Of a stretch of 64,000 nt of DNA, positions 7,943 through 44,748 are shown one piece after another. The position numbers and the translations under genes were made by a program. The DNA comes from Ostreococcus lucimarinus (Eukaryota): assembly GCA_000092065.1 (NCBI GenBank), contig CP000588.1; one strand, 5' to 3'. How positions within the stretch are numbered: the stretch's first letter is position 1; every line of letters begins with the position of its first letter. The notes beneath the pieces are model-generated. The model was not told the origin of the DNA. It worked only from the letters and a program-made list of their open reading frames with translations, and ran no database searches.

Positions 7943-9754
7943 TCAAGCTCCAAAATCGCCCATGGTAGACATGGGTCTGCGGTTCCACGCGTCACCACCT
8001 GCGCCTTCGCCCTCGAGATCGACGTCTCGTTCGAGACGTTGCGGACGCTCGCCACGTTCAATGGCATCCAAGCCCGCTCGCAAGTAATCGCTCTTTTGTT
8101 GTGCATCTTCCAAATAGTCCCATTCGAAAATGGGAATCGGGAACACGGCGAAACCTTCACCTTCGAGCTGCCGCTGTTTCAAGCGAGTTTGTCCGAGCGC
8201 TAATTTACGATCGTTACGCGCAAAGTGCGACGGACCGTCGACTTCAATTACTACTCCAGTAGGCTTTGCGTCCGGGAGTAGTAAATCGCATCTGTACCCA
8301 CTCACGAGAGCCTCTTCCTCGTGCTTTTCACCCATGTACGACAAAATAGCTCCAACATCGCGCTGGAACCACGACACAACGGGTGGCCGGTTCTGCGTGT
8401 TCCACGCTGTATCGGCAGCAGCACCAAGTTCAGTGGGCAAGGGGTCGAAGCCGGCGCGAACGGCGGTGATGGCCGCTTGATGTAACTGGTTGAGCTGACG
8501 CCCCTTCCATGGACCAAAGACGTTAGTGTTGTGATGTTCATCCATTGATGCCGCAGTATTTTCTTTTTCGTGGACCATTTGCGCGTCGTGCTCCCCTCGT
8601 GTAATAATTTCCGCCCAGAGCGTGCGAAAGAATAGACTATCGAGCGCGTCTTCCATGACACAGAAGGACCATGCAAGCGAGGCCAGAATTGTTGCGTTGA
8701 AGCGATGAACCTGAGCTTCTGCGGCTTGTTGCGGTGTCAAATCTTTGTTTCTCGCGGGCGCTCGGGCGACCCAGACATCGATGCCATCGAGAAACCCAGC
8801 GTGCGAGTGTCCAAGGTGCGCGAACGCCCAAGCCACAGTCGTGATTTGGTACGCTTGGAAGCCCTTGAAGCCTGTCATGGCGGCGTGAACGTCGAGTTCG
8901 TGGAAGAAGCGCTCAGATGAATGCCGAGAAATGGCGAGCGACCAGGAAATATCGGCGATCTCATCCGGAGACAGTTTCTTCATCAACTCCGACGCACGAT
9001 TGGCCAATACTTCGAGCTCGGCGCTGTTCGCCCGCTCACCGGCAATGACACCGAGCGCCCAGCAGCACTTGGCGACTTCTTCCGCGGGAAGCGTATCGCT
9101 CTTTGCGCGCGCGGCGGCGACGCACGTTCCAATCATGTGCGCTACTCGCGGATCTCGTCGCAACCCGGCGAGCTCCTCTCGGTCGCACCTACTGTGCTGC
9201 GCCTTCTGAGCGATGAGCTTCAGCATCGATGCCGCCATTTCCGGTGAAATACGTCTCAAACCAGCGTTCTCAAAAATGTGCACCGCATCGTGCGGATACG
9301 TTGCCGTGCGCGCTTGCGCCTTGACGGCTTTCCACTCCTCCTTGGTCATGGAAAACTGCGTCGCGTCTTGCCTCGGATCCATCTCCCACGCCGTGCCGCG
9401 GAGAAGCTCCTCTACGCTAGGTTCCGGCTTAATATAATTTCCCTCTTCGTCCATTTCGTATCCACGAATCGCCGCCGTGCGCGCGCGGTCTTCATCCCTC
9501 CCAGCGCGCGTGTACCTTCGAGCCGTCTGGTTCGCCCCGGGCTGTGCGCCGCGTTCTTTCCGAAATTCAGCCGCCCGCTTGTTCGCCGTCGCACGAGCCT
9601 TTTCCATCCAGTCATTGTAATCTGGATCATCTCCACCCGCGCGCGTTCTCGTCCCCGCGCGTCGCGCTGACCCCTCTCGAGCCCCTCCGGTTCGCTTGAC
9701 CCCGCGGTCCGTCCTCGTCGCCCCTCCCGCTCCGAGCACCCCTCGCGCGATCAT
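7943..9754 (-). CDS. RAP-domain protein with FASTK/OPR-like helical repeats. Likely an organellar RNA-binding factor.
   Basis: 603 aa. C-terminal ..VVIEVDGPSHFARNDRKLALGQTRLKQRQLEGEGFAVFPIPIFEWDYL..KSDYLRAGL fits the RAP consensus (EVDGPsHF..Kr..L...G..v..ipy.eW). Upstream helical repeats resemble FAST-kinase-like repeats. ATG at 9754..9752. Confidence 0.7.
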   Translation of the reverse strand: MIARGVLGAGGATRTDRGVKRTGGAREGSARRAGTRTRAGGDDPDYNDWMEKARATANKRAAEFRKERGAQPGANQTARRYTRAGRDEDRARTAAIRGYEMDEEGNYIKPEPSVEELLRGTAWEMDPRQDATQFSMTKEEWKAVKAQARTATYPHDAVHIFENAGLRRISPEMAASMLKLIAQKAQHSRCDREELAGLRRDPRVAHMIGTCVAAARAKSDTLPAEEVAKCCWALGVIAGERANSAELEVLANRASELMKKLSPDEIADISWSLAISRHSSERFFHELDVHAAMTGFKGFQAYQITTVAWAFAHLGHSHAGFLDGIDVWVARAPARNKDLTPQQAAEAQVHRFNATILASLAWSFCVMEDALDSLFFRTLWAEIITRGEHDAQMVHEKENTAASMDEHHNTNVFGPWKGRQLNQLHQAAITAVRAGFDPLPTELGAAADTAWNTQNRPPVVSWFQRDVGAILSYMGEKHEEEALVSGYRCDLLLPDAKPTGVVIEVDGPSHFARNDRKLALGQTRLKQRQLEGEGFAVFPIPIFEWDYLEDAQQKSDYLRAGLDAIERGERPQRLERDVDLEGEGAGGDAWNRRPMSTMGDFGA

Positions 9755-15383: not shown

Positions 15384-18300
15384 ATGGCGACGACTCACGC
15401 GGTCGCACCTCGATTAACGACGTTCCTGCGCGCCGCGCGCGGGTTGGACGACGTCGTGGATGTCGACGCCGAGCGCGCGAGACGGAACGAAACGCTGCGT
15501 ACAACGACGAGGCGCGACGCGACGACGGACGACACGCCGAGCGTGCGGCTGGCGCGACGCGTGCTGCGATGCGAGGACGGTCGCGAGGCGAAGGATGTCG
15601 TCAAGACGTGTCGAGCGTTCGTGAGCGTGGTCGTGCGCATGCTCGGGAGCGACACGATGACGGAGACGGAGTCGGGGGACGCGGCGGCGAGCGCGTGGGA
15701 CGCGGCGAGCGGATTCGTGGAAGTCATCGCGAACGAACGACGAGCTGTGGAATCCGAGCGAGGGTACGTCGCGGATCACGAGACCGCGAGAAAGATTTTT
15801 GAAGTGCGCGAGCGGGAGGTGCGGAAGGACATGATGGAGGCGCTGCGAGGCGCGCTCGGGCCGGTGGAAGCAAACGCGCCTACGGTTCGCGAATTCGAGA
15901 GTCTCGTCGAGGATCTTTTGCGCATGCGGGGCGAATTCGATGAGTTTCACACGCTGCAAAGTACGCTCGATGCAGAGCCGACAACGTCTGGGAGGATCTT
16001 TGGACAGAACATTAAATTCAAGCGCGCCGGAGACGCGCAACCGAGCGATCGAATTCGAGATTTGAAACGCGCGATGAAAACGAATTTGAGCGAGGCGAGC
16101 GAAGCGGAGCGCCTGCGAATCGAATCGGAGAGAATGGCGCACCCCGATGAGCGTATGAGTGGGTTCGGTGAGCCAGAGCACGTAGAGAGCGATGCGACGA
16201 CCCAGCTCACGTGGTTGAAGAGACAGTGCGAAGGTTTTGTTGCAAACAGCGCGCACGCGCTCGATCAGACGTGGGAAGCCGTCGCGGGTACGGTGGGGCG
16301 GGCAATTATGAATGCGTCGAGCTCGGATGACGAGTGCGCCGCTGAACTTTACGAATATCTGGGTGACTACGGGTTCGAGCTCATCGCGGGAGTGGTTGAA
16401 CGCCGCACGGTGCTCACGAGCGCCATCAAAAACCGGGCGCAGTTACTTCGAGATGCGCTAAACGCTCAAAGTGGCGCCGATAGAGCTGGACCATCTATCA
16501 CTCGTGTTGTTACGATTACGAGCACCTTGGATAAACAACTTGAAAAGGCTCGGAGAAAAGAAGAACGCAAAGCTAATCGCAAGCTTGCCTCTGGATCGGG
16601 CGCCAGCATTATGGAATGGCTTCAAGCCGTGGGTGTAGGTTTCGACGCTTTATGTGAAGGTGATTGGGAAAACCAGCAAGCACCTTCGTCATCAAGTAAT
16701 CCAGACGATATTCTTGCCGGTTTGCGAGGTCTTGGACGAGGTATGGATGGTGGGCGCAAAGCGTTGCCGCCAGGGACCACGCGCATCGTTCATCCAGAAG
16801 GGTACGAAGAGATCTCTGTACCGGCGCGAGAGCCAGATCCCGTGGCCGCTGGTGAGCGTTCTGTAGCGATTGAAGAGCTCGATGAGTGGGCGCAGCCCGC
16901 GTTTCAAGGCATCAGAATGCTCAATAGGATCCAAAGCAAGATTTTCCCGCAGGCGTACCACACCAACGAAAACTTACTCGTGTGCGCGCCGACGGGAGCC
17001 GGGAAGACGAACATCGCCATGCTAACCGTCTTACACGAAATCGGTCTTCACATAGATGAGAACGGCGACTACCTTCCAGAGGATTTCAAGATTGTCTACG
17101 TGGCACCCATGAAAGCGCTCGCGGCTGAAGTTACGGATGCATTTAGCAGAAGACTTGCACCTCTTGACATAGTCGTTGCCGAGCTCACGGGCGATACGCA
17201 AATGAGTAAACGCGAGCTCGAGGAGACACAAATGATCGTGACGACACCCGAGAAATGGGATGTCATCACACGAAAAGGCGGAGAAGTTTCTGTGGCGAGT
17301 ACTTTACGTTTACTCATCATTGATGAGGTGCACTTGTTGAATGACGAGCGGGGGCCGGTGATTGAAACGCTCGTCGCCCGTACTCTTCGTCAAGTCGAAC
17401 AAACTCAGAGTATGATACGGATTGTCGGTCTTTCTGCGACGCTGCCGAATCCCGTAGATGTGGCTCGATTCTTAGGCGTCAACAATGACGCCGGTTTGTT
17501 CGTTTTTGATCAGTCGTACCGGCCGATCCCATTGACGCAAAAGTTTATCGGGGTCACAGAGAAAAACTCGATGAAACGGCAAACACTCATGGCGCAGATT
17601 GCGTACAACAAAGCGTGTGAAGCGTTGAGAAATGGCAAACAAGCCATGGTCTTTGTACATAGCCGGAAGGATACAGTCAAGACGGCGAAGCAACTCGCTG
17701 AGTTTGCCGCTGCGCAGGATGGTATGGAACTCTTCTCCAACAACCAACACGAGCGCAAGGCTGAGTTCGCGCAACAAGTGTCACGAAGTCGGAATAACGA
17801 GTTGAAAGATCTGTTTCTCAAAGGACTAGGCTGTCACAACGCAGGTATGCTTAGAGCGGACCGTTCATTGACGGAAAAACTTTTCGCCGCCGGACTCATT
17901 AAAGTTCTAGTGTGTACGGCAACATTGGCGTGGGGTGTGAACTTGCCCGCGCACATCGTCGTCATCAAAGGCACGCAGCTTTACGACCCTCAACGCGGTG
18001 GCTTCAGGAATCTCGGTGTTTTAGATGTGCAACAAATTTTCGGTCGTGCAGGGCGACCAGGTTTTGACACTTCGGGCGAGGGTGTCATCGTCACCGAGCA
18101 CAAAAATTTGGCGCATTACGTGTCCATGCTCACGCATTCGACACCGATTGAATCACAATTTGTGAGCAACTTGGCTGATAATTTGAACGCCGAAGTGACT
18201 CTCGGTACAGTTACGAACGTGCGCGAAGGCGCGCAGTGGTTGGGATACTCTTACCTACACACGCGTATGGAGAAGAACCCACTCGCCTATGGTCTGACGT

Positions 18301-21300
18301 GGGACGACATTCGTCTTGATCCAGGCTTACTAGACCACCGCAGAAAACTCATCAAAGAAGCTGCAAGGGTTTTAGATCGTGCGAAAATGATTCGATTCGA
18401 CGAGCGGAGTGGACAGCTTTATCAAACCGAAGCTGGCCGTACGGCGAGTCACTTTTACATACGAGTCAATTCTATGGAAGTTTTCGATGGTTTGATGCAC
18501 AGACACATGACGCTGCCGGACATCTTTCACATGATTTCCCATTCGAGCGAGTTCGAAAACATAGTTCCCAGAGAAGATGAAATTCCTGAGTTGGAGACAT
18601 TGCGACGCAACCGCCGCGTGGTGCCGATTGACATCAAAGCCTCGCTCACAGACAAAGTAGGCAAAGTCAATTTACTCTTGCAAGTCTACATCTCTCGTGC
18701 GAGCATGCAATCTTTTTCTCTTATTGCCGATAGCATGTACATTTCGCAGAATGCGAGCAGAATTTGTCGCGCACTGTTTGAGTTATGCTTACGACGTGGC
18801 TGGCCGTCGCTCGCGGAACAATTGCTCACGGTGAGTAAATCGTGTGATTTGAGAATATGGCCGCATCAACACGAGCTTCGACAATTTGAAAAGTCGCTCA
18901 AGCCCGAAGTTTTGTTTAAGCTCGAAGAGAAGAAAGCCACTTTGGATCGTTTATGGGATATGAGTGCGAGTGAGATTGGCAGTATGTTGCGACTGAACAC
19001 TCAAATTGGTGGACAAGTCAAGTCGTGCATGCGCGCGATGCCGCATTTGAACATGACGGCTGTCGTGCAGCCCATCACGCGCTCCGTGTTACGAGTCTCT
19101 GTGACACTTACTCCTGAATTCGAATGGAGAGATGCAGTGCATGGTGCTCTTCAACGATGGCTGATCTGGGTCGAAGATCCGGTAAACGAGCACATATATC
19201 ACTCGGAAACTTTCAACTTGAGTAAAAAACAAAGCCGCGACGGGGCGCAATACTTGGCATTCACCATTCCCATTTTTGAGCCAGTGCCGCCGCAATATTT
19301 CTTGCGTGCCATGTCGGAAACCTGGCTCGGATGTGAATCTTTCGTCGAACTAAACTTCCAGCACCTCATCTTACCTGAAGAACATCCACCGCACACAGAA
19401 TTACTCGATCTTGATCCTCTCCCGCGATCAGCTTTGAACAATCCAGTGTATGAGTCGATGTACGAGGGGAAGTTTACGCACTTCAATGCCATTCAAACGC
19501 AAGCGTTTCACACGCTCTATCATACCGATACGAACGTTCTCCTTGGTGCGCCGACAGGCTCCGGTAAGACGATTTCGGCCGAGCTATCGATGATGAAAGT
19601 TTTCCGTGATTCTCCTGGTTCAAAAGTCGTCTACATTGCACCGCTCAAGGCTTTGGTTCGAGAACGCATCAAGGACTGGAGAAAGAATTTGTGCCCGACG
19701 CTCGGCTTGCGCATGGTCGAGCTCACAGGTGATTACACGCCAGATCTTCGAGCGCTTCTTCAGGCCGATATCATCGTTAGTACTCCGGAAAAGTGGGATG
19801 GCATCAGTCGTAACTGGCAAAGTCGCGCGTACGTCACCAAGGTTGCGCTCGTCGTTATTGATGAGATTCACTTGTTGGCGAGCGACAGAGGTCCTATTTT
19901 GGAAGTCATCGTGTCTCGTATGCGATACATCTCTGCGCGAACGGGTTCAAATGTTCGTATCGTTGGTTTGTCAACAGCGTTGGCGAACGCGCGTGATCTC
20001 GGAGATTGGCTCGGCATTGACAAGGAAGGTTTGTTCAACTTTCGACCGTCGGTGCGCCCGGTACCGCTCGAATGTCATATTCAAGGCTTTCCGGGTAAAT
20101 TTTACTGCCCGCGCATGATGACGATGAATAAGCCAACGTACGCGGCTATTCGCACGCATAGTCCTGAAAAGCCGACGCTTGTTTTCGTGTCGAGTCGACG
20201 ACAAACGCGCCTGACAGCGTTGGATTTGATCGCGTACGCTGCCGCGGACGAGCGCCCGGATGGCTTCGTGCACATGAGCGACGACGAGTTAACGATGCAC
20301 TTGAGTAAAGTCAAAGATCCAGCGTTGAAGCACACCTTACAATTTGGCATTGGTCTACACCACGCCGGTTTAACGCCAGAAGACCGAGAGTTATGCGAAG
20401 AGCTTTTCGCACAATGCAAGATACAAGTGTTGGTGACGACGTCAACGCTCGCGTGGGGCGTCAACTTGCCTGCGCACTTGGTCGTAATCAAGGGCACTGA
20501 ATATTTTGACGGCAAAACGAAGCGTTACCAAGACTTTCCCATTACAGATGTTCTTCAAATGATGGGTCGAGCGGGGCGACCGCAGTTCGATAAGTCTGGG
20601 TGCTGCGTCATTCTAGTACACGAGCCTAAAAAGACGTTTTACAAGAAATTTCTCTACGAGCCTTTTCCAGTTGAATCGAGCTTGGCAGAAAACTTATGCG
20701 ACCATTTCAACGCCGAAATCGTGAGTGGCACAATAAAGACTAAGCAGGACGCAGTCGATTACTTGACGTGGACTTACTTTTTCCGTCGCTTGCTCAAAAA
20801 TCCCACTTACTACAACTTGGATACCATTCAAACAGATAACTTGAATGAATACCTCAGCGATTTGGTCGAGAACGCTTTGGAGTTATTGGAGGACGCTCGT
20901 TGCATTGCAATCGATGAAGAAGACGATGGGTTGGAGCCTTTGATGTTAGGACGTGTCGCATCGTATTACTACCTACAGTACCCGTCCGTCGCACTTTTCG
21001 CGTCGAATATCAAGGCGAATAGTTCACTTGAATCATTGCTGGAAACGTTGTGCGGTGTGGCAGAATACGATGAACTACCCGTTCGTCACAACGAAGACAA
21101 GCTCAACACGGAGTTGGCAGAAGTTGTGGCTGATGCCGGTGGTTTCCAAGTCGACATTCGTCTGGCTGAGGACCCGCACGTGAAGACATCTTTGCTTTTC
21201 CAATGCCACTTCTTGCGGCTACCGCTACCTCTGAGTGATTATTACACGGACACAAAGAGCGTCCTCGATCAGGCGATTCGTATTTTACAAGCGATGATTG

Positions 21301-22046
21301 ACGTCACTTCCGATGCTGGTTGGCTACACACCGCACTGAGCACGATGAATTTGATGCAGATGATTATGCAGGGTAGAATGATTACCGATTCTTCGTTGTT
21401 GACGCTTCCGCACATCGAACGCAGACACTTGAGAAACCTTGAGAAACACGGCTTGTCTATTTTACCTCAGTTGATGGATCTATGCTCTTCCAACAAGCAA
21501 CAGGCGCGTCGAGTTCTCTCAGAATGTGGTATCAACGGTCGTAAAATTGATCAAGTCGTCGATTTATGTCTGAGACTTCCGGTGATTGACGCCAAGGCGA
21601 CGACGGAGACGACCAAAGGCATCAATGGTGAGAAGACGGTACACGTAAAGCTTCGACGTATCGGCAAGAAATGCGGTTCGAAGGCACCGACGTCGTATAC
21701 ACCGCGCTTTCCGAAAATAAAAGAAGAAGGTTGGTGGATAGTCGTTGGAGACACCGCGAATGATGAACTGTTGGCGCTGAGACGAATATCGTTTGGTGAT
21801 GCTGCTAACGTCAAGCTGAAATGTCCATCCGGCTCGTCTTCACGCGCACGCCCCGATTTGGTGGTGTTTTTGATGTCTGACTCATACATCGGACTTGATC
21901 AAGAAGTCAAGATTGACTCAAACACGATGGTTGATGAAGATTCGAGCGATGAATTTGCTGAAGACGACGATACATTTTGGGCTTTGCCCCCTGACTCGAC
22001 TGAGCCTTTCTGGCTAGGTGAAGGTGAAAACACGCTACTAACGTGA
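15384..22046 (+). CDS. BRR2: U5 snRNP 200-kDa helicase Brr2 (tandem Ski2-like helicase cassettes with Sec63 units)
   Basis: 2220 aa in one exon. Cassette 1: ..LLVCAPTGAGKTNIAM..DEVHLLNDERGPV..SATLPN..; cassette 2: ..VLLGAPTGSGKTISAEL..IDEIHLLASDRGPI... Sec63 regions follow each cassette. The spliceosomal N-terminal region is present. Confidence 0.95.
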   Translation: MATTHAVAPRLTTFLRAARGLDDVVDVDAERARRNETLRTTTRRDATTDDTPSVRLARRVLRCEDGREAKDVVKTCRAFVSVVVRMLGSDTMTETESGDAAASAWDAASGFVEVIANERRAVESERGYVADHETARKIFEVREREVRKDMMEALRGALGPVEANAPTVREFESLVEDLLRMRGEFDEFHTLQSTLDAEPTTSGRIFGQNIKFKRAGDAQPSDRIRDLKRAMKTNLSEASEAERLRIESERMAHPDERMSGFGEPEHVESDATTQLTWLKRQCEGFVANSAHALDQTWEAVAGTVGRAIMNASSSDDECAAELYEYLGDYGFELIAGVVERRTVLTSAIKNRAQLLRDALNAQSGADRAGPSITRVVTITSTLDKQLEKARRKEERKANRKLASGSGASIMEWLQAVGVGFDALCEGDWENQQAPSSSSNPDDILAGLRGLGRGMDGGRKALPPGTTRIVHPEGYEEISVPAREPDPVAAGERSVAIEELDEWAQPAFQGIRMLNRIQSKIFPQAYHTNENLLVCAPTGAGKTNIAMLTVLHEIGLHIDENGDYLPEDFKIVYVAPMKALAAEVTDAFSRRLAPLDIVVAELTGDTQMSKRELEETQMIVTTPEKWDVITRKGGEVSVASTLRLLIIDEVHLLNDERGPVIETLVARTLRQVEQTQSMIRIVGLSATLPNPVDVARFLGVNNDAGLFVFDQSYRPIPLTQKFIGVTEKNSMKRQTLMAQIAYNKACEALRNGKQAMVFVHSRKDTVKTAKQLAEFAAAQDGMELFSNNQHERKAEFAQQVSRSRNNELKDLFLKGLGCHNAGMLRADRSLTEKLFAAGLIKVLVCTATLAWGVNLPAHIVVIKGTQLYDPQRGGFRNLGVLDVQQIFGRAGRPGFDTSGEGVIVTEHKNLAHYVSMLTHSTPIESQFVSNLADNLNAEVTLGTVTNVREGAQWLGYSYLHTRMEKNPLAYGLTWDDIRLDPGLLDHRRKLIKEAARVLDRAKMIRFDERSGQLYQTEAGRTASHFYIRVNSMEVFDGLMHRHMTLPDIFHMISHSSEFENIVPREDEIPELETLRRNRRVVPIDIKASLTDKVGKVNLLLQVYISRASMQSFSLIADSMYISQNASRICRALFELCLRRGWPSLAEQLLTVSKSCDLRIWPHQHELRQFEKSLKPEVLFKLEEKKATLDRLWDMSASEIGSMLRLNTQIGGQVKSCMRAMPHLNMTAVVQPITRSVLRVSVTLTPEFEWRDAVHGALQRWLIWVEDPVNEHIYHSETFNLSKKQSRDGAQYLAFTIPIFEPVPPQYFLRAMSETWLGCESFVELNFQHLILPEEHPPHTELLDLDPLPRSALNNPVYESMYEGKFTHFNAIQTQAFHTLYHTDTNVLLGAPTGSGKTISAELSMMKVFRDSPGSKVVYIAPLKALVRERIKDWRKNLCPTLGLRMVELTGDYTPDLRALLQADIIVSTPEKWDGISRNWQSRAYVTKVALVVIDEIHLLASDRGPILEVIVSRMRYISARTGSNVRIVGLSTALANARDLGDWLGIDKEGLFNFRPSVRPVPLECHIQGFPGKFYCPRMMTMNKPTYAAIRTHSPEKPTLVFVSSRRQTRLTALDLIAYAAADERPDGFVHMSDDELTMHLSKVKDPALKHTLQFGIGLHHAGLTPEDRELCEELFAQCKIQVLVTTSTLAWGVNLPAHLVVIKGTEYFDGKTKRYQDFPITDVLQMMGRAGRPQFDKSGCCVILVHEPKKTFYKKFLYEPFPVESSLAENLCDHFNAEIVSGTIKTKQDAVDYLTWTYFFRRLLKNPTYYNLDTIQTDNLNEYLSDLVENALELLEDARCIAIDEEDDGLEPLMLGRVASYYYLQYPSVALFASNIKANSSLESLLETLCGVAEYDELPVRHNEDKLNTELAEVVADAGGFQVDIRLAEDPHVKTSLLFQCHFLRLPLPLSDYYTDTKSVLDQAIRILQAMIDVTSDAGWLHTALSTMNLMQMIMQGRMITDSSLLTLPHIERRHLRNLEKHGLSILPQLMDLCSSNKQQARRVLSECGINGRKIDQVVDLCLRLPVIDAKATTETTKGINGEKTVHVKLRRIGKKCGSKAPTSYTPRFPKIKEEGWWIVVGDTANDELLALRRISFGDAANVKLKCPSGSSSRARPDLVVFLMSDSYIGLDQEVKIDSNTMVDEDSSDEFAEDDDTFWALPPDSTEPFWLGEGENTLLT

Positions 22047-33340: not shown

Positions 33341-34357
33341 TCAAAGTTCGTCTTTCACCGCCTTCTTCTTCTCCAGGCTTTCTTTGTGCTGCTTGAACAT
33401 TTGCTTCGTGTCGTAGTCGGCGCGCATCAGATTTGCCAAGGCTTCCACGTCGATACCCCGCTTGTTCTTGATGAAGATGTCCGCGCCGTTCGACATCAGT
33501 CCCCACGCCGCGTGGATGTGATCGCCGCGAATCGCCTTGTGGAGCGGCGTTTCACCGTCCGCGTCTTGCGCGTTCACGTCCGCACCGGCATCGATCAACA
33601 CCTTCACCATTTCGAAGGAGGATTTATGCGCCGCCTCGTGCAGCGGCGTTGTCAAGTTGCCCGTGCTCCGGCGCGCGTTTGGATCTACGGCTTCCGCCTC
33701 GAGTAACGTCTGCATGTAAGGAATGCAATACTTCTTCCACCCTCGCGCCGCGATGTGAATCGGTTGGTACCCTTGATCCGTTTCCTCGATCGGATCCGCC
33801 CCGTGTTCCAACAGCGCGTGCAAAATCGGCACGCTTCCTCGCTGTCCGCACGACCCCGCGTTGAAGTGAATCGCCTTGCCTCCGTACAGTTTCGCGTTGG
33901 TATCCGCCCCGAGTTCGATCACCGTCCGCACGTACGTATCGTTCCCGACCAATATCGCGTGTTTCAGCGCCGTCAACCCACTTCGGTGCAACGGCGCGTT
34001 TATGTCGTGATGATCCGGAAATTTTTCAAATTGATTTCGCAGCTCCTCGTGATCCATGCGATGGCCCACGTGCAGCAGGTTCGCCGGCTTCTCTTCCTCG
34101 GGTTCCGGTTCGGCTTCGCGCGCGTTCGGGTCCGGGACGACGTCGTGTTCGGCGTCGGCTTCGCGACCGCCGAGTCCGTACGTGCGTTGCAGTTCACTGT
34201 ACAGCGAGCTTCGTCCGAATCCGCCCGCATCGACCCGTCGCGCGTGACGCAGCAGCGTCAGCGCGGCGATGACGACGATGACGACGACGCGCGATGGCGC
34301 GAACGCGACGCGCGCGCGACGAAGGCGCGCGTCGCGCGACGACTCGCGGCGCGGCAT
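33341..34357 (-). CDS. Ankyrin-repeat protein with an N-terminal signal anchor
   Basis: 338 aa. ..VVVIVVIAALTLL.. TM. Ankyrin repeats ..NAPLHRSGLTALKHAILVGNDTYVRTVIELGADTNA.., ..TPLHEAAHKSSFEMVKVLIDAGADVNAQDADGETPLHKAIRGDHIHAAWGLMSNGADI... Its stop is 31 bp from the PRL1 stop. Confidence 0.75.
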   Translation of the reverse strand: MPRRESSRDARLRRARVAFAPSRVVVIVVIAALTLLRHARRVDAGGFGRSSLYSELQRTYGLGGREADAEHDVVPDPNAREAEPEPEEEKPANLLHVGHRMDHEELRNQFEKFPDHHDINAPLHRSGLTALKHAILVGNDTYVRTVIELGADTNAKLYGGKAIHFNAGSCGQRGSVPILHALLEHGADPIEETDQGYQPIHIAARGWKKYCIPYMQTLLEAEAVDPNARRSTGNLTTPLHEAAHKSSFEMVKVLIDAGADVNAQDADGETPLHKAIRGDHIHAAWGLMSNGADIFIKNKRGIDVEALANLMRADYDTKQMFKQHKESLEKKKAVKDEL

Positions 34358-34663
34358 CGGTCGCGGTTCGCGATTTTCCTCGCGATCCGAGCGATCGAGG
34401 ATTCGCGGCGCGCGCGCGAAGGGTCGCGAACGAGGCGACGCGACGTGCCGACACGCGATCGCTGGGTGTTCAGTTGTCTTTTTTTTTTTTGGCTCGACGA
34501 AGGAAGGCGCGAACGAGACGCCGTTACAATCTGAGCTAACGCGTGCGTGCGGTGCGCGTCGCGGTGAGTTTACCGCGTGACGACGAACGCGCGCGCGAAC
34601 GAGTGATGGGAAGAATCGCGCCGCGGCGAGGGCGCGGAGACGCGGCGAGAGCCGCGAAGGCGA

Positions 34664-35356
34664 CTACGCCGCGGCGGGCTCGCGAGAGACAAACTTTCGC
34701 AGCGCCACGCGACCGCACTTTTTATATTCGTCCACGAGATCGTGGCACGCGGTGACGTTCGCGGCGTTGGCGCCGTAACACGCGCGAACGCTCGCGGCCT
34801 CGACGGCGCACGGCGGCTCGCGCGCGCCGTTGAATGGATCGCGCTCGAGCGCGTCGAGCTCCTCGACGAATCGACGCGTTCGAGCGATTTCTCCCTCCTC
34901 TCGCTTGAGCAATAAATCTCCCACGCGCTCGCTCGCGCGAAGCGCGCCGTCTACATCTGGGTGTCTGCGTCTCACCGCCTCGTCCGCGATCGCCTCGCGA
35001 TGATTCCCCGGCGCGACGCGCGCCGTCGACAACAGGTCCGCCGGCGCGAAGAGCCCGCGCGCCGCCGTCCCCGGTTTCGCCCCGATCCCGCTCGTCGACG
35101 CGCCTCCCCGTTCGCCTCCGCTCGCCGCTCGCGCGTCCCGCTCATTTTCACCGACGTCTTCCCCGCTCGCCCGTCTTCGCGCCCTCTCGAGCTCGCGAAC
35201 CAAGCGCGCCGTAATCTATTCGCCTCGCCGCCGCGCGTCGTCAGTCGTCGCGCCGCGTTCGAACCTCCATCGCGTTCGAGCCTCCGCTCGCGCGTCGCCG
35301 TCCGTTCGGCCGCGCGCGGACGACGACGACGGCACCGTTCGCGTCGTCGGACGCGT

Positions 35357-35411
<55 letters not shown>

Positions 35412-35512
35412 CTTCGCATCGCGCGTCGTCGCGTCGTCTCGCGCACCCGTATCCGCGCCTGCGCGCCCGATCGAGCGTCGTTCGCCCGCGCCGCGCTCTT
35501 CGACGCGCCCAT
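34664..35512 (-). CDS. N-myristoylated coiled-coil CHCH protein (MICOS Mic19/CHCHD3-like), two exons: exon 2 = 34664..35215, intron ~35216..35446 (about 230 nt, containing a (GTC)n microsatellite), exon 1 = ~35447..35512.
   Basis: The track ORF (34664..35203) starts on TTG and has no Met at all. An in-frame acceptor gcgaaTAG|ATT sits 25 nt after a branch cgACTGACGacg. Upstream exon 1, ATG GGC GCG TCG AAG AGC.. (MGASKSAARANDARSGAQARIR), ends at a GTGCGCGAG donor. Exon 2 has a coiled coil and a C-terminal twin Cx9C (C-AVEAASVRA-C .. C-HDLVDEYKK-C). Confidence 0.5.
35343..35411. repeat. (GTC)n trinucleotide microsatellite, about 15–22 units. It lies inside the proposed 5' intron of the Mic19-like gene.
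   Basis: Uninterrupted gtcgtcgtc.. run. Both strands give long artefactual ORFs here (poly-Asp on the minus strand, poly-Arg/Ser on the plus strand). Confidence 0.85.
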
Positions 35513-35577
35513 GGCCGTCGCGTCGCCGTCTCGCGCCGTCGCGCGCGCGCGCCGCGGTGGCGCCGCGCGCCCGAGAT

Positions 35578-35637
35578 CGAGACTGTGCGTCACACACGGA
35601 CTGAGAATGAAACGAGACTGCGTATCACACACGGACG
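35578..35637. repeat. Two copies of a ~23-nt direct repeat (gagactg(tg)cgt(c/a)(a/t)cacacacggac) separated by 14 nt in the Mic19-like/HA-protein divergent spacer
   Basis: gagactgtgcgtcacacacggac ... gagactgcgtatcacacacggac. Confidence 0.6.
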
Positions 35638-35746
35638 ACGGGATAAGGTCGGACGGTCGTCGCGCGCGCGCGCGCACACGGCGCCGCGGCCTCGGCGCCG
35701 AGCACGGCGCGAGCGATGACGAACGAACGCGCGCGAACGTGAGGAC

Positions 35747-37744
35747 ATGGTGGCGACGGCGCGGGCGACGGCGCGGGCGATAAGGACGCGCGATGGCACG
35801 CGATGGCACGCGAGGGGACGCGCGCGGAGGCGCGCGGACGCGCGACGCGGGACGCGCGCGAGAGGGACGTCGCGCGAGGACGCGGACGTGGACGTGAGCG
35901 GAGACGCGAGCGCGCGCGCGGAGGCGAGGGAAGACGACGAAGCGATTCGAGAGGAACGGCTGACGCCCGAGGATGAACTCTTGGCGAAGATTGAGGCGAG
36001 ACGAGAGGCGATGTTTCGAAGGAGCGAACGGACGAGGGCGACGAACGCTGGGCGCGATGAAGACGGAGTGGATTCGACGATCGATCGGGAGGAGACGCGA
36101 CGGGAGGACGAGCGGGAGGCGACGACGTCTGGGCGAAGACGAGACGAGTCGCCGTCGCGTCGGCGGCGAGTCGCGTCGGCGGCGGAGGATCCGTCGGCGG
36201 TGAGATCGAATGAGAAGCGAATCGAGGGCGATAGCGTCGGTGGTAGAGCTCGTCGAGAGGACACAGAGTTAGTCTGGGTGCTCGAACGTCCGGGTGAGGG
36301 CTGGGGAGAGCAGATTTTGCCAACCATCAAAGCGGAGCGCCGCGCGGTGGAGCGCCCGGCGCCGAGAAGGGCGCTGAGCTCTAGCGAGGAGTTTTTGATA
36401 CGCGAGATCGGCTTGAGTTCGGACGAAGTCGTGGCGGCTTTGAGTGCGGCCGCGGCGTGGCGCACGACGAAGAAGGGCCGAGCGTTGGTAGATAAGCGAC
36501 GCATGCGCCTCGTTCAGCAAAACGTCCTCCCGTGCGCGCAGACGATGTTCAATTTCGGCGCGTCGAAAGAGGATATGGCGCAGATTGTGCGAGATTATCC
36601 CATCGTCTTATCCCTCGACACTTCAACGGCATGGAATATGGATTTTGTGGAGTACGTCGTTCGGCAGAAAACCGAAAGCGGGGGCACGAAGGGTCGCATT
36701 CGAACGAAGGCGTACACAGGACGTCGCCCTACTGTCAAATCCATCTACAGACCCGAAAGAGTTTCCGATCACATGACTGAGTGGATCAGTCAGCAGCGTA
36801 GCGATCGTGACGAAGGTTTACTCAATCAAGAGCAGTTGTACTTACTCGACGCTATCGGATTCGACGCTGATAGATACGTCACGCAAGACATGTTGTTGAA
36901 ACGAAAAGGTAGAAAGGTTTGGGAGAAGTGGTTCGAAGAGCTCATCACTTTTCAGCAGCGCACCGGGCTGACGAATCCACCTTACGAAGAGGGTGTGACC
37001 ACAGGTCTCGGCGCTTGGCTGGAAGAGCAGCGGGAGTTGTACCGCATCGGCGAATTAGTCGATAAGCGAGAGGAGCGCTTGCGCGCGCAGGGCATCGCTT
37101 TTGACTCGCTCGAAGCGCTCGAGGAAGTCAAGAGGTTGAACTCGTTCGTTCGCGATACGACCATCGAACCTGTCGAGAACATACTTGCAAACACGCAGTT
37201 CACGCAGCTTGCTTTAGAACTCCGAGCTTTCCTCAACGAGAATGGGGAATACGCGGAGCCCAACGTCAATTCACCGCTCGGCGTGTGGGTCATCAAGACG
37301 CGCGCCAAAGTGCGAGACGGCACGATTCGCGACGAAGACATGCAGGCTTTAGAGCAACTCAACCTCGATATGGTCTACATCCCGGAAAGTTGGGTTGCGA
37401 TGTTAAACGTTTACGCGGACATGCGTGCGAGGCGCTCGAATTCCCTCGGCGTGGACATCATGAGAGTGAAAGCTTGGCAACGCGAACAGCTCGACCTCAT
37501 GAGGCGCAACGATGGCTCACTCACGCAGGCGCAGGTCAATCGTCTGCGCCACGTAGCCGCGATCGACAACATCGCTGGCTTCGCGTCAAACGCAGTACGC
37601 AGCGCGCGCGAAGAGCGTGCGAGAGAGTTTGCCGAGTTTGAGGCGCGCGTCGCCGCACGCAAGGCACGCTTGGAAGCGCTCGAAAAAGTCAAGCTGTCCA
37701 TTGACGAAGAACAAGACGAAGAACACGAAACGGACAATACTTAG
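35747..37744 (+). CDS. Organelle-targeted protein with an mTERF-like region and tandem helicase-associated (HA) domains
   Basis: 665 aa. Arg-rich presequence; ..LIREIGLSSDEVVAALSAAAAW..IVRDYPIVLSLDTSTAWNMDFVEYV.. (mTERF-like); HA-domain units ..KVWEKWFEELITFQQRTGLTNPPYEEGVTTGLGAWLEEQRELYRIGELVDKREERLRAQGIAFD.. and ..NSPLGVWVIKTRAKVRDGTIRDEDMQALEQLNLDM... Confidence 0.45.
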   Translation: MVATARATARAIRTRDGTRWHARGRARRRADARRGTRARGTSREDADVDVSGDASARAEAREDDEAIREERLTPEDELLAKIEARREAMFRRSERTRATNAGRDEDGVDSTIDREETRREDEREATTSGRRRDESPSRRRRVASAAEDPSAVRSNEKRIEGDSVGGRARREDTELVWVLERPGEGWGEQILPTIKAERRAVERPAPRRALSSSEEFLIREIGLSSDEVVAALSAAAAWRTTKKGRALVDKRRMRLVQQNVLPCAQTMFNFGASKEDMAQIVRDYPIVLSLDTSTAWNMDFVEYVVRQKTESGGTKGRIRTKAYTGRRPTVKSIYRPERVSDHMTEWISQQRSDRDEGLLNQEQLYLLDAIGFDADRYVTQDMLLKRKGRKVWEKWFEELITFQQRTGLTNPPYEEGVTTGLGAWLEEQRELYRIGELVDKREERLRAQGIAFDSLEALEEVKRLNSFVRDTTIEPVENILANTQFTQLALELRAFLNENGEYAEPNVNSPLGVWVIKTRAKVRDGTIRDEDMQALEQLNLDMVYIPESWVAMLNVYADMRARRSNSLGVDIMRVKAWQREQLDLMRRNDGSLTQAQVNRLRHVAAIDNIAGFASNAVRSAREERAREFAEFEARVAARKARLEALEKVKLSIDEEQDEEHETDNT

Positions 37745-40283: not shown

Positions 40284-42437
40284 ATGGCGAAGAAACAGCG
40301 CGGCGGCGGCGGTCGCGCCGGTGGAGGCTCGAACGCCTCCGGAAGCGCGCAGAAGGAGAAACCTAAACACTCCATGAGCGTCACGAATCGCACGAACAAC
40401 ATGAACCCGCACGAGCGCAGCGCGGCGACGGTGCGGCGTTTGGCCATGTACAAGCAAAAGGCGGTGCGAGATAAAAAGGGGAAAATTTTAAAGCAAGACT
40501 TGCAGAGTAAGGCTTTGCCGTCGACGCGAATCGTGCCCGATCGACGATGGTTCGGGAACACGCGGGTGATTGGGCAGAAACAGTTGGAGGAGTTTCGAGA
40601 GGAGATGGCGACGAAGAGCCGAGACGGATACACGGTGCTCATTAAACAAAAGAAGCTGCCGCTGTCGTTGCTCAAGGATGAGGAGCGAGGACGAGCCCGT
40701 CGAGTGAATTTATTGAGTCAGAGCACGTTTGCGGAAACGTTCGGGGCGAATAAGAGACGGAAAAAGCCTAAACTGGCGATGGATAATCTCGAAGCCATGC
40801 TTAGCACGGCGTCAAAGATGGGGGAAGTTTATCAAGAAGGCGTGGAAACTGGCGCGATTATGGATAGGGACTTGATGCGCGCTGATGACGGTGTGCGAGT
40901 GGAAGCTAAGCAGAGCATGTTTGAAAAGGGACAATCCAAGCGTATTTGGGGTGAGTTGTATAAGGTTGTCGATTCTTCGGACGTCATCATTCAAGTTTTG
41001 GATGTTCGCGATCCCATGGGGACGAGGTGCTACCATCTCGAGCAACACTTAAAAAAGGACGCGATGAAGCGACATAAGCACATGATTCTGCTGTTGAACA
41101 AAGTTGATTTGGTCCCCGCGTGGGTCACAAAGCGTTGGTTACACACGTTGTCGCGTGAGTTCCCCACGATTGCGTTTCATGCGTCAGTGAGTAATCCGTT
41201 TGGTAAAGGAGCCGTGTTGTCTCTCCTTCGTCAGTTTAGCCGTCTTCGAATGGACAAGCAAAACATCTCTGTGGGTTTTGTGGGGTATCCCAACGTCGGG
41301 AAGTCGTCAGTGATTAACGCACTGCGTTCTAAACGCGTGTGCCTGACTGCGCCTATTCCGGGTGAAACCAAGGTTTGGCAGTATGTCAACCTCACGAAGA
41401 GAATTTTCTTGATTGATTGCCCAGGCGTCGTGTACCAGGACACTGAAGACACCGACACGGATGCCGTACTCAAGGGTGTAGTTCGTATATCCAATCTCGA
41501 AGATGCGCAAGAGCATATTCCTGATGTGATCGCTCGAGTCAAAGCTGAGTATTTGCGACGAGCATACAAGACGCCAAGTTGGACCGATCCTGACGACTTT
41601 CTGCGTCAAGTTGCTCGTATGAGTGGTAAATTACTCAAGGGTGGCGAAGAGGACGTAAACGCCGTCGCAAAATCTATTTTGCACGATTGGCAACGTGGTC
41701 GCATTCCGTGGTTCACGCCGCCACCTTCTCTTCCTGATGGACCGTCTCAAACGACCGTAAACGTGTTAGAAACTGCGTCCTCTGCGGAAAAAGACGCCGC
41801 GCAAGGCTTTGCTTCGGCGGCGGCAGAAGTGACGATGAAGCAAGTCCATCGGCGGATGCCACAGGCGCATGGTTTATTTGACGAAGAAGATAGACACGAT
41901 CAAGAGTACGCGACGGAGGATGAAGATGAACCAGAATCTGAGGACGACGGTGAAGGAGACGACGACGACGAGGACGACGGCAAGGCGAACAAGTCTAAGC
42001 GCAAGCGCGAAGAAGTATCCGACGAGGACGAACGACAGGATGAAGACGAACATGGCGAACTATCTGAAAGCGAAGACGTCGATCTTAACGATGAACGCGT
42101 CGGCGATGGTGTTGACGCGGAAACTCTCAAGAAGTTTGCGTCCGACGAAGACGAAGACGAAGACGACGAAGACGACAAGGGGAACGACAGCGATAGCGAC
42201 AGCGACGGTTACGGCCCGGGAGGTTTATCATTCGATCAGGTACTCGCTGAAATGAAAGGTGAGGTCAAAGAGAAGCCATCTGGTGTCAGTGGTAAATCCA
42301 CGGCGAAGAAATCGCGCGATAACAAGCGCAAGAGCGCCGACGCCTTTGGCGCCTCATCCTCGGGCAAAGAAGAGCGCACGGTGAGTTTCGTCCCCTCGAA
42401 GAAAAAGTCTGCCGCTCGCAAACCCGTTCGGAAGTAG
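40284..42437 (+). CDS. NOG2: Nucleolar GTPase NOG2/NGP1/GNL2 (circularly permuted GTPase; pre-60S biogenesis) with a long acidic C-terminal extension
   Basis: 717 aa. Permuted G-motifs ..MILLLNKVDLVPAW.. (G4) before ..VGFVGYPNVGKSSVINAL.. (G1) and ..LIDCPGVV.. (G3). N-terminal ..KHSMSVTNRTNNMNPHER..; Asp/Glu-rich tail. Confidence 0.9.
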   Translation: MAKKQRGGGGRAGGGSNASGSAQKEKPKHSMSVTNRTNNMNPHERSAATVRRLAMYKQKAVRDKKGKILKQDLQSKALPSTRIVPDRRWFGNTRVIGQKQLEEFREEMATKSRDGYTVLIKQKKLPLSLLKDEERGRARRVNLLSQSTFAETFGANKRRKKPKLAMDNLEAMLSTASKMGEVYQEGVETGAIMDRDLMRADDGVRVEAKQSMFEKGQSKRIWGELYKVVDSSDVIIQVLDVRDPMGTRCYHLEQHLKKDAMKRHKHMILLLNKVDLVPAWVTKRWLHTLSREFPTIAFHASVSNPFGKGAVLSLLRQFSRLRMDKQNISVGFVGYPNVGKSSVINALRSKRVCLTAPIPGETKVWQYVNLTKRIFLIDCPGVVYQDTEDTDTDAVLKGVVRISNLEDAQEHIPDVIARVKAEYLRRAYKTPSWTDPDDFLRQVARMSGKLLKGGEEDVNAVAKSILHDWQRGRIPWFTPPPSLPDGPSQTTVNVLETASSAEKDAAQGFASAAAEVTMKQVHRRMPQAHGLFDEEDRHDQEYATEDEDEPESEDDGEGDDDDEDDGKANKSKRKREEVSDEDERQDEDEHGELSESEDVDLNDERVGDGVDAETLKKFASDEDEDEDDEDDKGNDSDSDSDGYGPGGLSFDQVLAEMKGEVKEKPSGVSGKSTAKKSRDNKRKSADAFGASSSGKEERTVSFVPSKKKSAARKPVRK

Positions 42438-42704
42438 TGCACACTTTGTTGTAAACTCATTCAACTGTAGACTTATTCAACCGCCTTTTTTAGCTCACGA
42501 ACGCGAGCTCCAAAAGGATTCGTTCCTGCACCACGCGTCGTCCAGGCTAAATTTGGCCGATAACGCTCGTTTTGTCTTCCCGTCTCCCACCGAAAACGCC
42601 AAAACGGCTGCGTCACAATAAGGACGCGCGGTCGACGCCGTGAGCGAGCGAGCGCGTCTCGGGACGCGTTAATAGTGCCACGCCCGTCGAACACTTACCG
42701 CCTC

Positions 42705-43787
42705 ATGTCCACAGCACTCGCCGCGCTCGCAACGACGGCGATGGCGACGACGACCGCGTGGGCGACCGCCGAGGACACTGCGAGAAAAGATCTTGACGAC
42801 GCGGCGAAACGCTGCGACGACGACGCTCACCGCTGGAGAAAGTATGGACACAAGAAGATCGGAAAGCGAGATAAAACGTCGAACGACCTCAGCGAGCGAT
42901 CGTATTACCGATGCTCGTTCGAAGGATGCCCAGCGCGAAAGCGCGTCGGGTGGTGTCCAGAGACAGGACACACGCGCGTGTGGTATGAATTCGAGCACAC
43001 GTGCGGGCAAGTGATGCGCGGACCGTGTTCGCAGTGCGGTACGAAAGAGTCACCGCAGTGGCGCCGCGGGACTTGCGCGAAACCGGTGCTTTGTAACGCG
43101 TGTGGGGTGCGTTACAGGAAGACGCAAGCGGTGCGTGACGAGACAGACGAAATGAACGCACAAGGTCCGGTTAAGAAGCGCCCTATGGTCACGGATCCTG
43201 CGAATAACGACGTTGGTGAGAAGAGAGCGAATGTTGTTACCAGTAATGGACAGGTTGCGCGTATAAAGAGAGGAAGGTCGAAAAAGTCAGTGCCCAAAGA
43301 GCTTTTATCAGCCGCCAAGCGGGTCGTGGAGCTCAGTCGAGCGCCGGAGGGAAATTCGCTGTTTCAGCACGTTTTGATTCCACGCGCGCCGCGGACGAGC
43401 GCCACAGTCGCGACAAAGCCATTGATACCCGCACCAAAGCCGTTGACTGTACCGGAAGGCGTTAGAAACATCCGGTTGTTCGCTCGCGTGCAAACTGAAA
43501 ACGGCAACAAGACGGTGCTGAAGCCAGTGCGCGTGATGGTTTCATCGCAAGTCGAAGTCGAGAAGCTCCGCACCCAACTTACCATCAGAGATGCGAGCTT
43601 GAAGGCCGAACGAGCTCGTGCGCAAGCACTCGAGGCGAAAGTCAATTTTTTGCGCGCTCAGTTAGAGTGCAAAGCTCTTCGCGCGCGCCTGCGCGAAACG
43701 GCAGTCAGCAAGGCACCGGAAGAACGGCCGAGATCGTCGCCATCGATGAACGAGCAGGCGCGCGAGAAATTGGAAGTAGATTTGTAG
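42705..43787 (+). CDS. WRKY plus GATA zinc-finger fusion transcription factor with a C-terminal coiled coil
   Basis: WRKY domain: ..HRWRKYGHKKIGKRDKTSNDLSERSYYRCSFEGCPARKRVGWCPETGHTRVWYEFEHTC (WRKYGxK heptad plus Cx5C..HxC). Plant-type GATA finger with an 18-residue loop: CSQCGTKESPQWRRGTCAKPVLCNACGVRYRK. Coiled coil ..EVEKLRTQLTIRDASLKAERARAQALEAKVNFLRAQLE... The track ORF starts on GTG at 42675. Confidence 0.7.
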   Translation: MSTALAALATTAMATTTAWATAEDTARKDLDDAAKRCDDDAHRWRKYGHKKIGKRDKTSNDLSERSYYRCSFEGCPARKRVGWCPETGHTRVWYEFEHTCGQVMRGPCSQCGTKESPQWRRGTCAKPVLCNACGVRYRKTQAVRDETDEMNAQGPVKKRPMVTDPANNDVGEKRANVVTSNGQVARIKRGRSKKSVPKELLSAAKRVVELSRAPEGNSLFQHVLIPRAPRTSATVATKPLIPAPKPLTVPEGVRNIRLFARVQTENGNKTVLKPVRVMVSSQVEVEKLRTQLTIRDASLKAERARAQALEAKVNFLRAQLECKALRARLRETAVSKAPEERPRSSPSMNEQAREKLEVDL

Positions 43788-43848
43788 AGTAAACATAAAG
43801 CGCGTAAGTGTCTAAAATAATACCAACAACATTCTAATGGCGAATCAC

Positions 43849-44748
43849 CTAGCGAGGCTGTTGCATCTCCGCGGCGTCGCCGATGAGTGGAAGCTTGATT
43901 TCCTTCCCAGCGGTTGAACCGACGGCGCCGACGGTGCAGCAGATGTACGTGAACAAAAACACACTGTTGAAAAAGATGATTTCCGCTTGTAGTCCAGCTC
44001 CTCCGGTCGGTCCCGAGCCATCGATCCCTTGAAACGTTCGCGTCAAGAGGTCCGGCACGATTAACAAAATATCCAACAGCACCGCTTGTTGCGCATTGAA
44101 TCGCACAAAACGCTTCATGTTTTGATTTTGCACGACGCCCAAGTAAGTGGCGAAAAACACCGCAATCTGCAAAAACCCGAGGTTGAACCAAAGCGAAATC
44201 AGGGGACTGAGCGGCAGCAGCGCGAGACTGAACGCGGGAAACTGAAGCAACAAAAACTTGCTATACTTCAAGCTATCCAACAGCGGCAACATGTAAACCA
44301 ACGCCGCGATCGCGCGTTCGCTGTAATCATACTCCTCCTCCGGTGCGTTCTTATTCTGTCCTCGTCCTTGTCCCATCATTCCCGCCTTCTCTCGCGCGAT
44401 CCTCGCCTGGGCTTTCGCCAAATCCGCCGCCACTCTCGCGCCGTCCGCCTTGGCCTCCGCGTCCAGCGCCCTCGGCGGCGCCGCCGCCGGTTCCTCCCTC
44501 TCCGGCACCGCCCCGAAGTCCCCGAGCAATTTATCCAGGTTACTGATCGTCTCGTCTTCGTCTCCAGACGCGCGCATCACCGCGTCGCGCCGCGCGCGCG
44601 CGCCCACCACCGCGTCGAGCGCGCGATGAAGATGACGCTCGCGCCGCGTCGCGCGCGCCGAAACGCGTCGCGCGTCGCGCGTCGCCGTCGTCGTCGCGCG
44701 TCGCGGTGCGGCGCACGCACCGCGCGCGCACTGCGATGACGCGATCAT
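43849..44748 (-). CDS. TIC20: Tic20 family chloroplast inner-envelope translocon protein with a transit peptide. The track ORF extends on TTG to 44868.
   Basis: ..ERAIAALVYMLPLLDSLKYSKFLLLQFP..ATYLGVVQNQNMKRFVRFNAQQAVLLDILLIVPDLL..IFFNSVFLFTYICCTVGAVGSTAGKEIKLPLIGDAAEMQ matches Tic20 (..ylLPl.dgl...r.....P.........Y..VVrn...srFvRFnamQailLDill..P.l.....kvP.lP.igdaAe). Confidence 0.75.
   Translation of the reverse strand: MIASSQCARGACAAPRRATTTATRDARRVSARATRRERHLHRALDAVVGARARRDAVMRASGDEDETISNLDKLLGDFGAVPEREEPAAAPPRALDAEAKADGARVAADLAKAQARIAREKAGMMGQGRGQNKNAPEEEYDYSERAIAALVYMLPLLDSLKYSKFLLLQFPAFSLALLPLSPLISLWFNLGFLQIAVFFATYLGVVQNQNMKRFVRFNAQQAVLLDILLIVPDLLTRTFQGIDGSGPTGGAGLQAEIIFFNSVFLFTYICCTVGAVGSTAGKEIKLPLIGDAAEMQQPR

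Follow-up and report, generated by a model that had tools for sequence, protein, structure and literature searches.

Does a single gene of the picoalga Ostreococcus lucimarinus really join a WRKY domain and a GATA-type zinc finger in one polypeptide, and if so, what would such a protein do, and how did it come to lie where it lies? The question is raised by a stretch of 64,000 nucleotides (assembly GCA_000092065.1, contig CP000588.1), hereafter the window, in which the initial annotation had noticed, from the letters alone, one protein with both fingers and a C-terminal coiled coil. Both domains are indeed encoded by one uninterrupted open reading frame, and the 360-residue product scores for both above the curated Pfam cut-offs in hmmscan, with 54.7 bits for WRKY (PF03106; cut-off 21, E=1.1e-14, model positions 1-58 of 59) and 44.6 bits for GATA (PF00320; cut-off 26.8, E=1.1e-11, model positions 1-33 of 36), over the residues given in Table 1. 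From the last WRKY zinc ligand to the first GATA cysteine there are only seven residues, and no stop codon lies between the fingers.

The reading frame extends from 42675 to 43787 on the plus strand, and gene callers are split about its start (42675-42818 being the ambiguous region): prokaryote-style callers begin at a GTG at 42675, which gives 370 residues, while the ATG at 42705 gives 360. As the closest relative, P0002 (88% identical), has the same ATG, the shorter version was taken as the coding sequence. The Ala/Thr-rich N-terminus (MSTALAALATTAMATTTAWATA) shows no conservation outside the O. lucimarinus complex. The surrounding genes of the window are ordinary nuclear genes, encoding the NGP1 GTPase, TIC20, profilin, FtsZ, a Brr2 helicase and a PHD-finger protein. 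The Brr2/SNRNP200-type spliceosomal helicase (two DEAD plus Sec63 units) is encoded by an uninterrupted 2,220-codon frame at 15384-22046, the 3' half of which coincides with the lowest GC content of the window (0.49 at 18-22 kb). The highest GC content (0.696) is found at 34001-36000, overlapping open reading frames on both strands just upstream of an HA-domain gene.

Table 1. Features of the WRKY-GATA gene, its synteny anchors in the window, and the corresponding intervals at three loci that lack the gene.
Feature	Sequence	Position	Strand	Basis or remark
Upstream synteny anchor, NGP1/nucleostemin-type nucleolar GTPase	window	40284..42437	+	context
WRKY-GATA protein, complete intron-less CDS	window	42705..43787	+	360 aa plus stop
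WRKY domain, residues 39-100	window	42819..43004	+	Pfam; AF2; Foldseek; identical to 'Ol3'
Spacer GQVMRGP, seven residues between zinc fingers	window	43005..43025	+	read from sequence
GATA-type zinc finger, residues 108-140	window	43026..43124	+	Pfam; PDB sequence matches; dN/dS; absent in syntenic orthologues
Basic motif GPVKKRP, residues 154-160	window	43164..43184	+	in all family members (alignment)
Beta-hairpin module, residues 253-280 (RNIRLFARV...LKPVRVMVSS)	window	43461..43544	+	AF2 strands; conserved
Long amphipathic helix, residues 282-335, putative coiled-coil dimerisation element	window	43548..43709	+	AF2; heptads; family-wide conservation
Downstream synteny anchor, TIC20	window	43849..44748	-	context
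NGP1-TIC20 gap, 126 bp	L018	6856-6981		early-branching Ostreococcus-level lineage; equivalent to window 42438-43848
NGP1-TIC20 gap, 78 bp	L019	7269-7346		Mamiellales, 41% GC; equivalent to window 42438-43848
NGP1-TIC20 gap, 305 bp	L020	7317-7621		Mamiellales, groups with Micromonas-like NGP1 sequences; equivalent to window 42438-43848

The N-terminal half carries the heptapeptide WRKYGHK (residues 44-50, at 42834-42854), a Q-to-H variant of WRKYGQK that may shift the WRKY half-site, and the zinc ligands C70-X4-C75-X22-H98-X-C100, which were read from the translation and fit the pattern C-X4-5-C-X22-23-H-X-H/C. The initial annotation had spaced the first ligand pair as C-X5-C, a minor error, as it is C-X4-C. 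AlphaFold2 (AF2), run on the full length with 9 sequences and on residues 30-160 with 8 sequences, predicts for this domain an antiparallel sheet of four strands (44-51, 64-70, 78-83 and 90-95) with a pLDDT of about 70-80. The best Foldseek matches of the N-terminal model in the PDB are the crystal structures of AtWRKY33, AtWRKY1 and AtWRKY2, with target-normalised TM-scores (TMt) of 0.54-0.64, and by sequence this half matches AtWRKY33 (6j4g) and AtWRKY1 (2ayd). Group III of the flowering-plant WRKY proteins is defined by the spacing C-X7-C-X23-H-X-C; membership in this group was weighed for the CCHC ligands and rejected, as the spacing here is C-X4-C-X22-H-X-C and not C-X7-C. From end to end, the domain has the same sequence as 'Ol3 alga', the third O. 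lucimarinus WRKY in the supplementary sequences of Rinerson et al. 2015 (PMC4350883). This identifies the source of the window as O. lucimarinus or an indistinguishable relative, and the gene is therefore already public as Ol3 and not new to databases.

The GATA finger follows directly, as had been noted, and is of the plant type: C108-X2-C111-X18-C130-X2-C133, with W119 and L129-CNACG-134, fits C-X2-C-X17-20-C-X2-C, and its loop of 18 residues is that of plant fingers, whereas the solved animal fingers have C-X17-C. By sequence it matches the fingers of GATA1 (3vd6), GATA3 (4hc7) and AtGATA18 (HAN; 8j48) in the PDB over the full length. Non-canonical residues are SP for TP and GT-C for GP, and the basic tail behind the finger (RYRKTQAVR) is short and passes into an acidic stretch. 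Both AF2 runs, which had shallow alignments, left the finger at a low pLDDT of about 50-60, and structural confirmation by Foldseek is therefore limited to the WRKY half. There is no solved protein that contains both domains, and each half finds its PDB matches separately by sequence.

Where could such a finger come from? No specific donor gene was found, and nearest to it is a class of free-standing chlorophyte GATA factors without a WRKY domain (GGPC.HCG..ESPQWRRGP.AKP.LCNACGTRYRRT, also (V/M)LCNACGTRYRRT; e.g. P0113, P0008 from a Tetraselmis transcriptome, and P0009), to which it is identical at 24-25 of 34 positions. The unusual ESPQWRRG and KPVLCNACG, as well as the GP ahead of the first cysteine, are common to both, while the finger of the window differs by CSQC, GTC and VRYRK. 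As this GP is typical of these closest free-standing chlorophyte fingers, its presence is a hint at the capture of an entire GATA module. The finger-bearing segment is also bracketed by GP codons, GGACCG at 43020-43025 and GGTCCG at 43164-43169, just before VKKRP, and the GATA-less relative P0005 has a single GGACCG before VKKRP at the corresponding place. Judged from the letters, these codons are possibly the microhomology footprint of an insertion or of a deletion, and they fit either equally well.

Behind the fingers follows GPVKKRP, which is probably a nuclear localisation signal, and a C-terminal module of beta-hairpin and helix that is kept in every family member. AF2 predicts the hairpin strands (253-263 and 270-280) and the helix of 54 residues all with a pLDDT above 90, and L258, F259, A260, G267, L272, P274 and V275 of the hairpin are invariant in the family alignment. 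In the helix, V,L,L,A,V,L,A,V all fall on the same core position in a single heptad register, with hydrophobic residues at 12 of 17 a/d positions, so that the C-terminal coiled coil of the initial annotation holds as a prediction. An identity as bZIP was rejected, since no Pfam bZIP was found at E up to 1 and since, according to the AF2 model, a beta-hairpin and not a basic region precedes the helix.

How widely is this architecture distributed? The fused form was found in frame in three diverged lineages of the O. lucimarinus complex, namely in the window, in P0002 (367 aa; 46.0 bits for GATA) and in L017, which represents the P0003 lineage and reads through both fingers in frame on one contig (44.3 bits for WRKY and 43.3 bits for GATA). 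P0002 and L017 also keep the WRKYGHK variant. The JGI gene call of P0003 missed the whole N-terminal half, and both fingers are supplied by L017:1-381; the finger of L017 has TSYW for SPQW, CNACW for CNACG and GTP for GTC and still reaches 43 bits for GATA. In the neighbouring TIC20 gene, dS is 0.17 and 0.34 to the two fused relatives and 1.3 or more, i.e. saturated, to every GATA-less lineage, which marks the fusion-bearing lineages as a single, tight species complex. In an exhaustive phmmer scan of 1.84 billion representative proteins, the WRKY heptapeptide and the GATA cysteine pattern are combined, within the 150 best matches, by close relatives of this protein alone; fusions with weaker scores may lie below that limit.

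The search among relatives also had a second outcome, as four other Ostreococcus lineages (P0004/5/6, P0041, P0038 and P0047) have the gene without the GATA finger. Their proteins score in Pfam for WRKY only, and have the same WRKY type, GPVKKRP, and the hairpin with the coiled coil. In all four, the gene occupies the same slot between the NGP1 GTPase gene and the convergently oriented TIC20 gene: the order HA, M50, unknown, NGP1, WRKY, TIC20, profilin, TLC, FtsZ is common to the window, P0005 and P0041, and on their shorter contigs P0038 and P0047 have the same NGP1, TIC20 and profilin neighbors. P0038 is identical to Ot3 of O. tauri (Rinerson) at 61 of 63 positions, and P0041 is about 85% identical to Or3; as Or3 presumably stems from Ostreococcus sp. 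RCC809, P0041 is probably RCC809-like. The segment from HTC to KKRP in the GATA-less proteins comprises 14-30 residues of variable sequence and contains no remnant of a finger.

A third state exists at three further loci, L018, L019 and L020, where no WRKY gene lies between NGP1 and TIC20 and tblastn detected no trace of the protein (Table 1). At L019, TIC20 is separated from profilin by an additional gene (8541-9677) for a lysine/glutamate-rich, coiled-coil-like protein of 378 residues, which no Pfam family matches and which has no counterpart in the Ostreococcus loci. In a neighbor-joining tree of six genes (1,812 sites), the WRKY-bearing lineages form one clade with L018 outside in 99% of bootstraps. 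A profile search with the C-terminal module returned three fragments only, two resembling the P0041 lineage and one being the C-terminus of P0047, and no members from outside. The simplest history is thus that the WRKY/coiled-coil gene arose at this site within Ostreococcus, and the WRKY family, found here only in Ostreococcus, is likely to be young and fast-evolving. Across the Ostreococcus clades, the WRKY factor is 34-44% identical and NGP1 79-87%, and the factor therefore evolves far faster. Against the P0003 lineage, dN of the WRKY-GATA protein is 0.20 (dN/dS 0.32), compared to 0.023 (dN/dS about 0.07) for TIC20.

Was the GATA finger gained by a GATA-less ancestor, or was it lost from a fused one? 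A gain is slightly favored. The opposite history, in which the fusion is ancestral to the gene family, a single deletion removed the finger from the shared ancestor of the GATA-less lineages and the window shows the original state, is somewhat less probable but has to be taken seriously. L008 and L013, the GATA-less lineages sampled for the six-gene tree, cluster there in 64% of bootstraps, and with this grouping one gain and one loss are equally parsimonious. The outgroups have no such gene at all and therefore cannot polarise the change, and the flanking GGACCG and GGTCCG codons could mediate a microhomology deletion. When a third GATA-less lineage (L015) is included in an NGP1 plus TIC20 tree, however, a clade of all GATA-less lineages is recovered in only 23% of bootstraps, which favors the gain, and their linkers differ in length and sequence without any finger remnant, which is more easily reconciled with an insert into a variable linker than with one clean deletion. 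In its complete stepwise form, the gain would mean that the WRKY/coiled-coil gene was new in Ostreococcus, and that the ancestor of the oceanic O. lucimarinus complex alone later captured a complete GATA finger, which turned the protein into a factor of bipartite specificity that rewired a regulon. This whole chain of events can be put forward only tentatively, and we regard it as possible rather than likely.

What would the fused protein do? Taken as a whole, the data are best explained by a sequence-specific nuclear transcription factor that acts as a dimer and reads composite sites, and we consider this explanation likely. The common architecture of the family consists of a CCHC-type WRKY finger, the basic KKRP motif, a disordered linker, the beta-hairpin and the predicted coiled coil, and only in the O. 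lucimarinus complex does the short linker, directly behind the WRKY finger, contain a complete GATA finger. The basic KKRP and KRGRSKK patches could direct nuclear import, and the C-terminal hairpin and coiled coil may bring about dimerisation. As judged from the family memberships, the WRKY finger would bind W-boxes (TTGACY) and the GATA finger WGATAR. Because the tether comprises only seven residues, the WRKY beta-sheet and the GATA finger of each protomer would contact adjacent DNA, and the target would be a composite element, W-box-like plus GATA-like, and not one of the two motifs by itself. Orthologues without the finger would recognize just the WRKY site, and the regulon may have been changed or sharpened in the fused form. 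Within the 64-kb window, no pair of W-box and WGATAR within 12 bp was observed, with 0.9 expected from 200 dinucleotide shuffles of the window, a sample too small to give this comparison more than almost no power; the 267-bp region upstream of the gene itself contains no W-box and one GATA.

Alternatively, the GATA finger could be a structural zinc module or a module for protein interaction that does not read DNA, in which case the specificity would come from the WRKY domain alone. A model for this is the N-finger of GATA-1 with FOG, and the non-canonical residues of the finger, the short basic tail with the acidic residues behind it, the further drift in the P0003 lineage (TSYW, CNACW) and the low confidence of the AF2 model would all agree with it. 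Nevertheless, we regard this as rather improbable: the deviating SPQWRRG and KPVLCNACG are common to a large class of chlorophyte GATA factors, with the identity of 24-25 of 34 positions mentioned above, Pfam recognizes the finger well above threshold in all three lineages, and it aligns over its full length with the DNA-binding fingers of GATA1, GATA3 and AtGATA18.

Could the GATA segment be a recent insertion that is selectively neutral and already decaying? Its narrow phyletic range and the loss of some canonical residues in the P0003 lineage might suggest so, but none of the three fused lineages, which are up to about 0.5 apart in dS, has lost the reading frame, W119, LCNAC or any of the four GATA cysteines, and the HMM scores of 43-46 bits are undiminished. 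Pairwise comparisons of these lineages give the finger dN/dS values of 0.11, 0.33 and 0.31, which are ratios from small counts and are no higher than in the WRKY domain (0.16-0.25) or the C-terminal module (0.18-0.42). As far as such small counts go, the finger is under purifying selection and shows no sign of decay, and a neutral insertion is accordingly very improbable. An artefact, with the fingers on two genes or two transcripts or joined by a chimeric assembly, has no finding in its favor and is effectively refuted at the DNA level, since only seven codons without a stop separate them, the same frame recurs in two diverged relatives, and the orthologues can be aligned over their whole length through the junction. 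The identical protein also occurs in 503 indexed blocks of a public contig collection, of which the contigs read are independent marine metagenome assemblies, including Tara Oceans, so that an identical ORF recovered so often is no assembly artefact.

The locus offers three states of one chromosomal slot among closely related picoalgae: no gene, WRKY with coiled coil, and WRKY-GATA with coiled coil. Fusions of different DNA-binding domains are one route to new regulatory specificities, but the states before and after can seldom be compared cleanly. O. tauri serves as an experimental model and is genetically tractable. A comparison of the binding sites or targets of Ol3 and Ot3 could show the effect of a second finger placed seven residues away, and if the proposed history is true, the locus would be a stepwise, dated natural experiment in transcription-factor innovation among sibling species. 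The fused form is that of the lineage present in many marine metagenome assemblies, Tara Oceans included, and the GATA-less form is found in an O. tauri-like lineage. The practical reach is limited, as one gene in one species complex is concerned.

How does the fusion relate to known systems? Green unicellular algae have one to three WRKY genes (PMC4350883), in agreement with the initial remark that they are few, and the single-domain (non-Group-I) algal genes have no flowering-plant counterparts (Rinerson et al., PMC4350883). For Ol3, Ot3 and Or3, only the WRKY domain sequences were analyzed in that study, in the text of which the word 'GATA' does not occur (Rinerson et al. 2015, PMC4350883). 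The Ot3-like P0038 and the Or3-like P0041 are the positional orthologues of Ol3, with the same WRKY type and the same C-terminal module, but the GATA finger is present in Ol3 and absent from the Ot3- and Or3-like proteins. In the searchable literature, 'WRKY-GATA' and its variants appear in no paper, a survey of microalgal transcription factors does not mention the fusion, and 'WRKYGHK' occurs for land plants only. The GATA partner, the chlorophyte host and the tandem arrangement with seven residues are thus undescribed there, which bears out the earlier impression that the architecture had not been characterized.

The closest known analogues are the chimeric WRKY proteins of flowering plants, in which the partners are, among others, ZF_SBP, B3, NAC, kinase or TIR/NBS-LRR domains (Mohanta et al. 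2016, PMC5112548; Rinerson 2015). GATA is not among the 16 chimeric forms of Mohanta et al., who included O. lucimarinus in their data and stated that chimeric WRKY proteins occur in flowering plants only (PMC5112548), and this published confinement is corrected by the fusion described here. Like those chimeras, the protein of the window combines a WRKY domain with a second domain in one polypeptide, is lineage-restricted and apparently recent, and has a type of partner, namely a DNA-binding domain, that is sometimes found there as well. Unlike in those chimeras, the partner is GATA, the host is a chlorophyte, and the two fingers are only seven residues apart. The combination of WRKY with another DNA-binding domain is therefore not unprecedented, and what is new is only the partner and the lineage.
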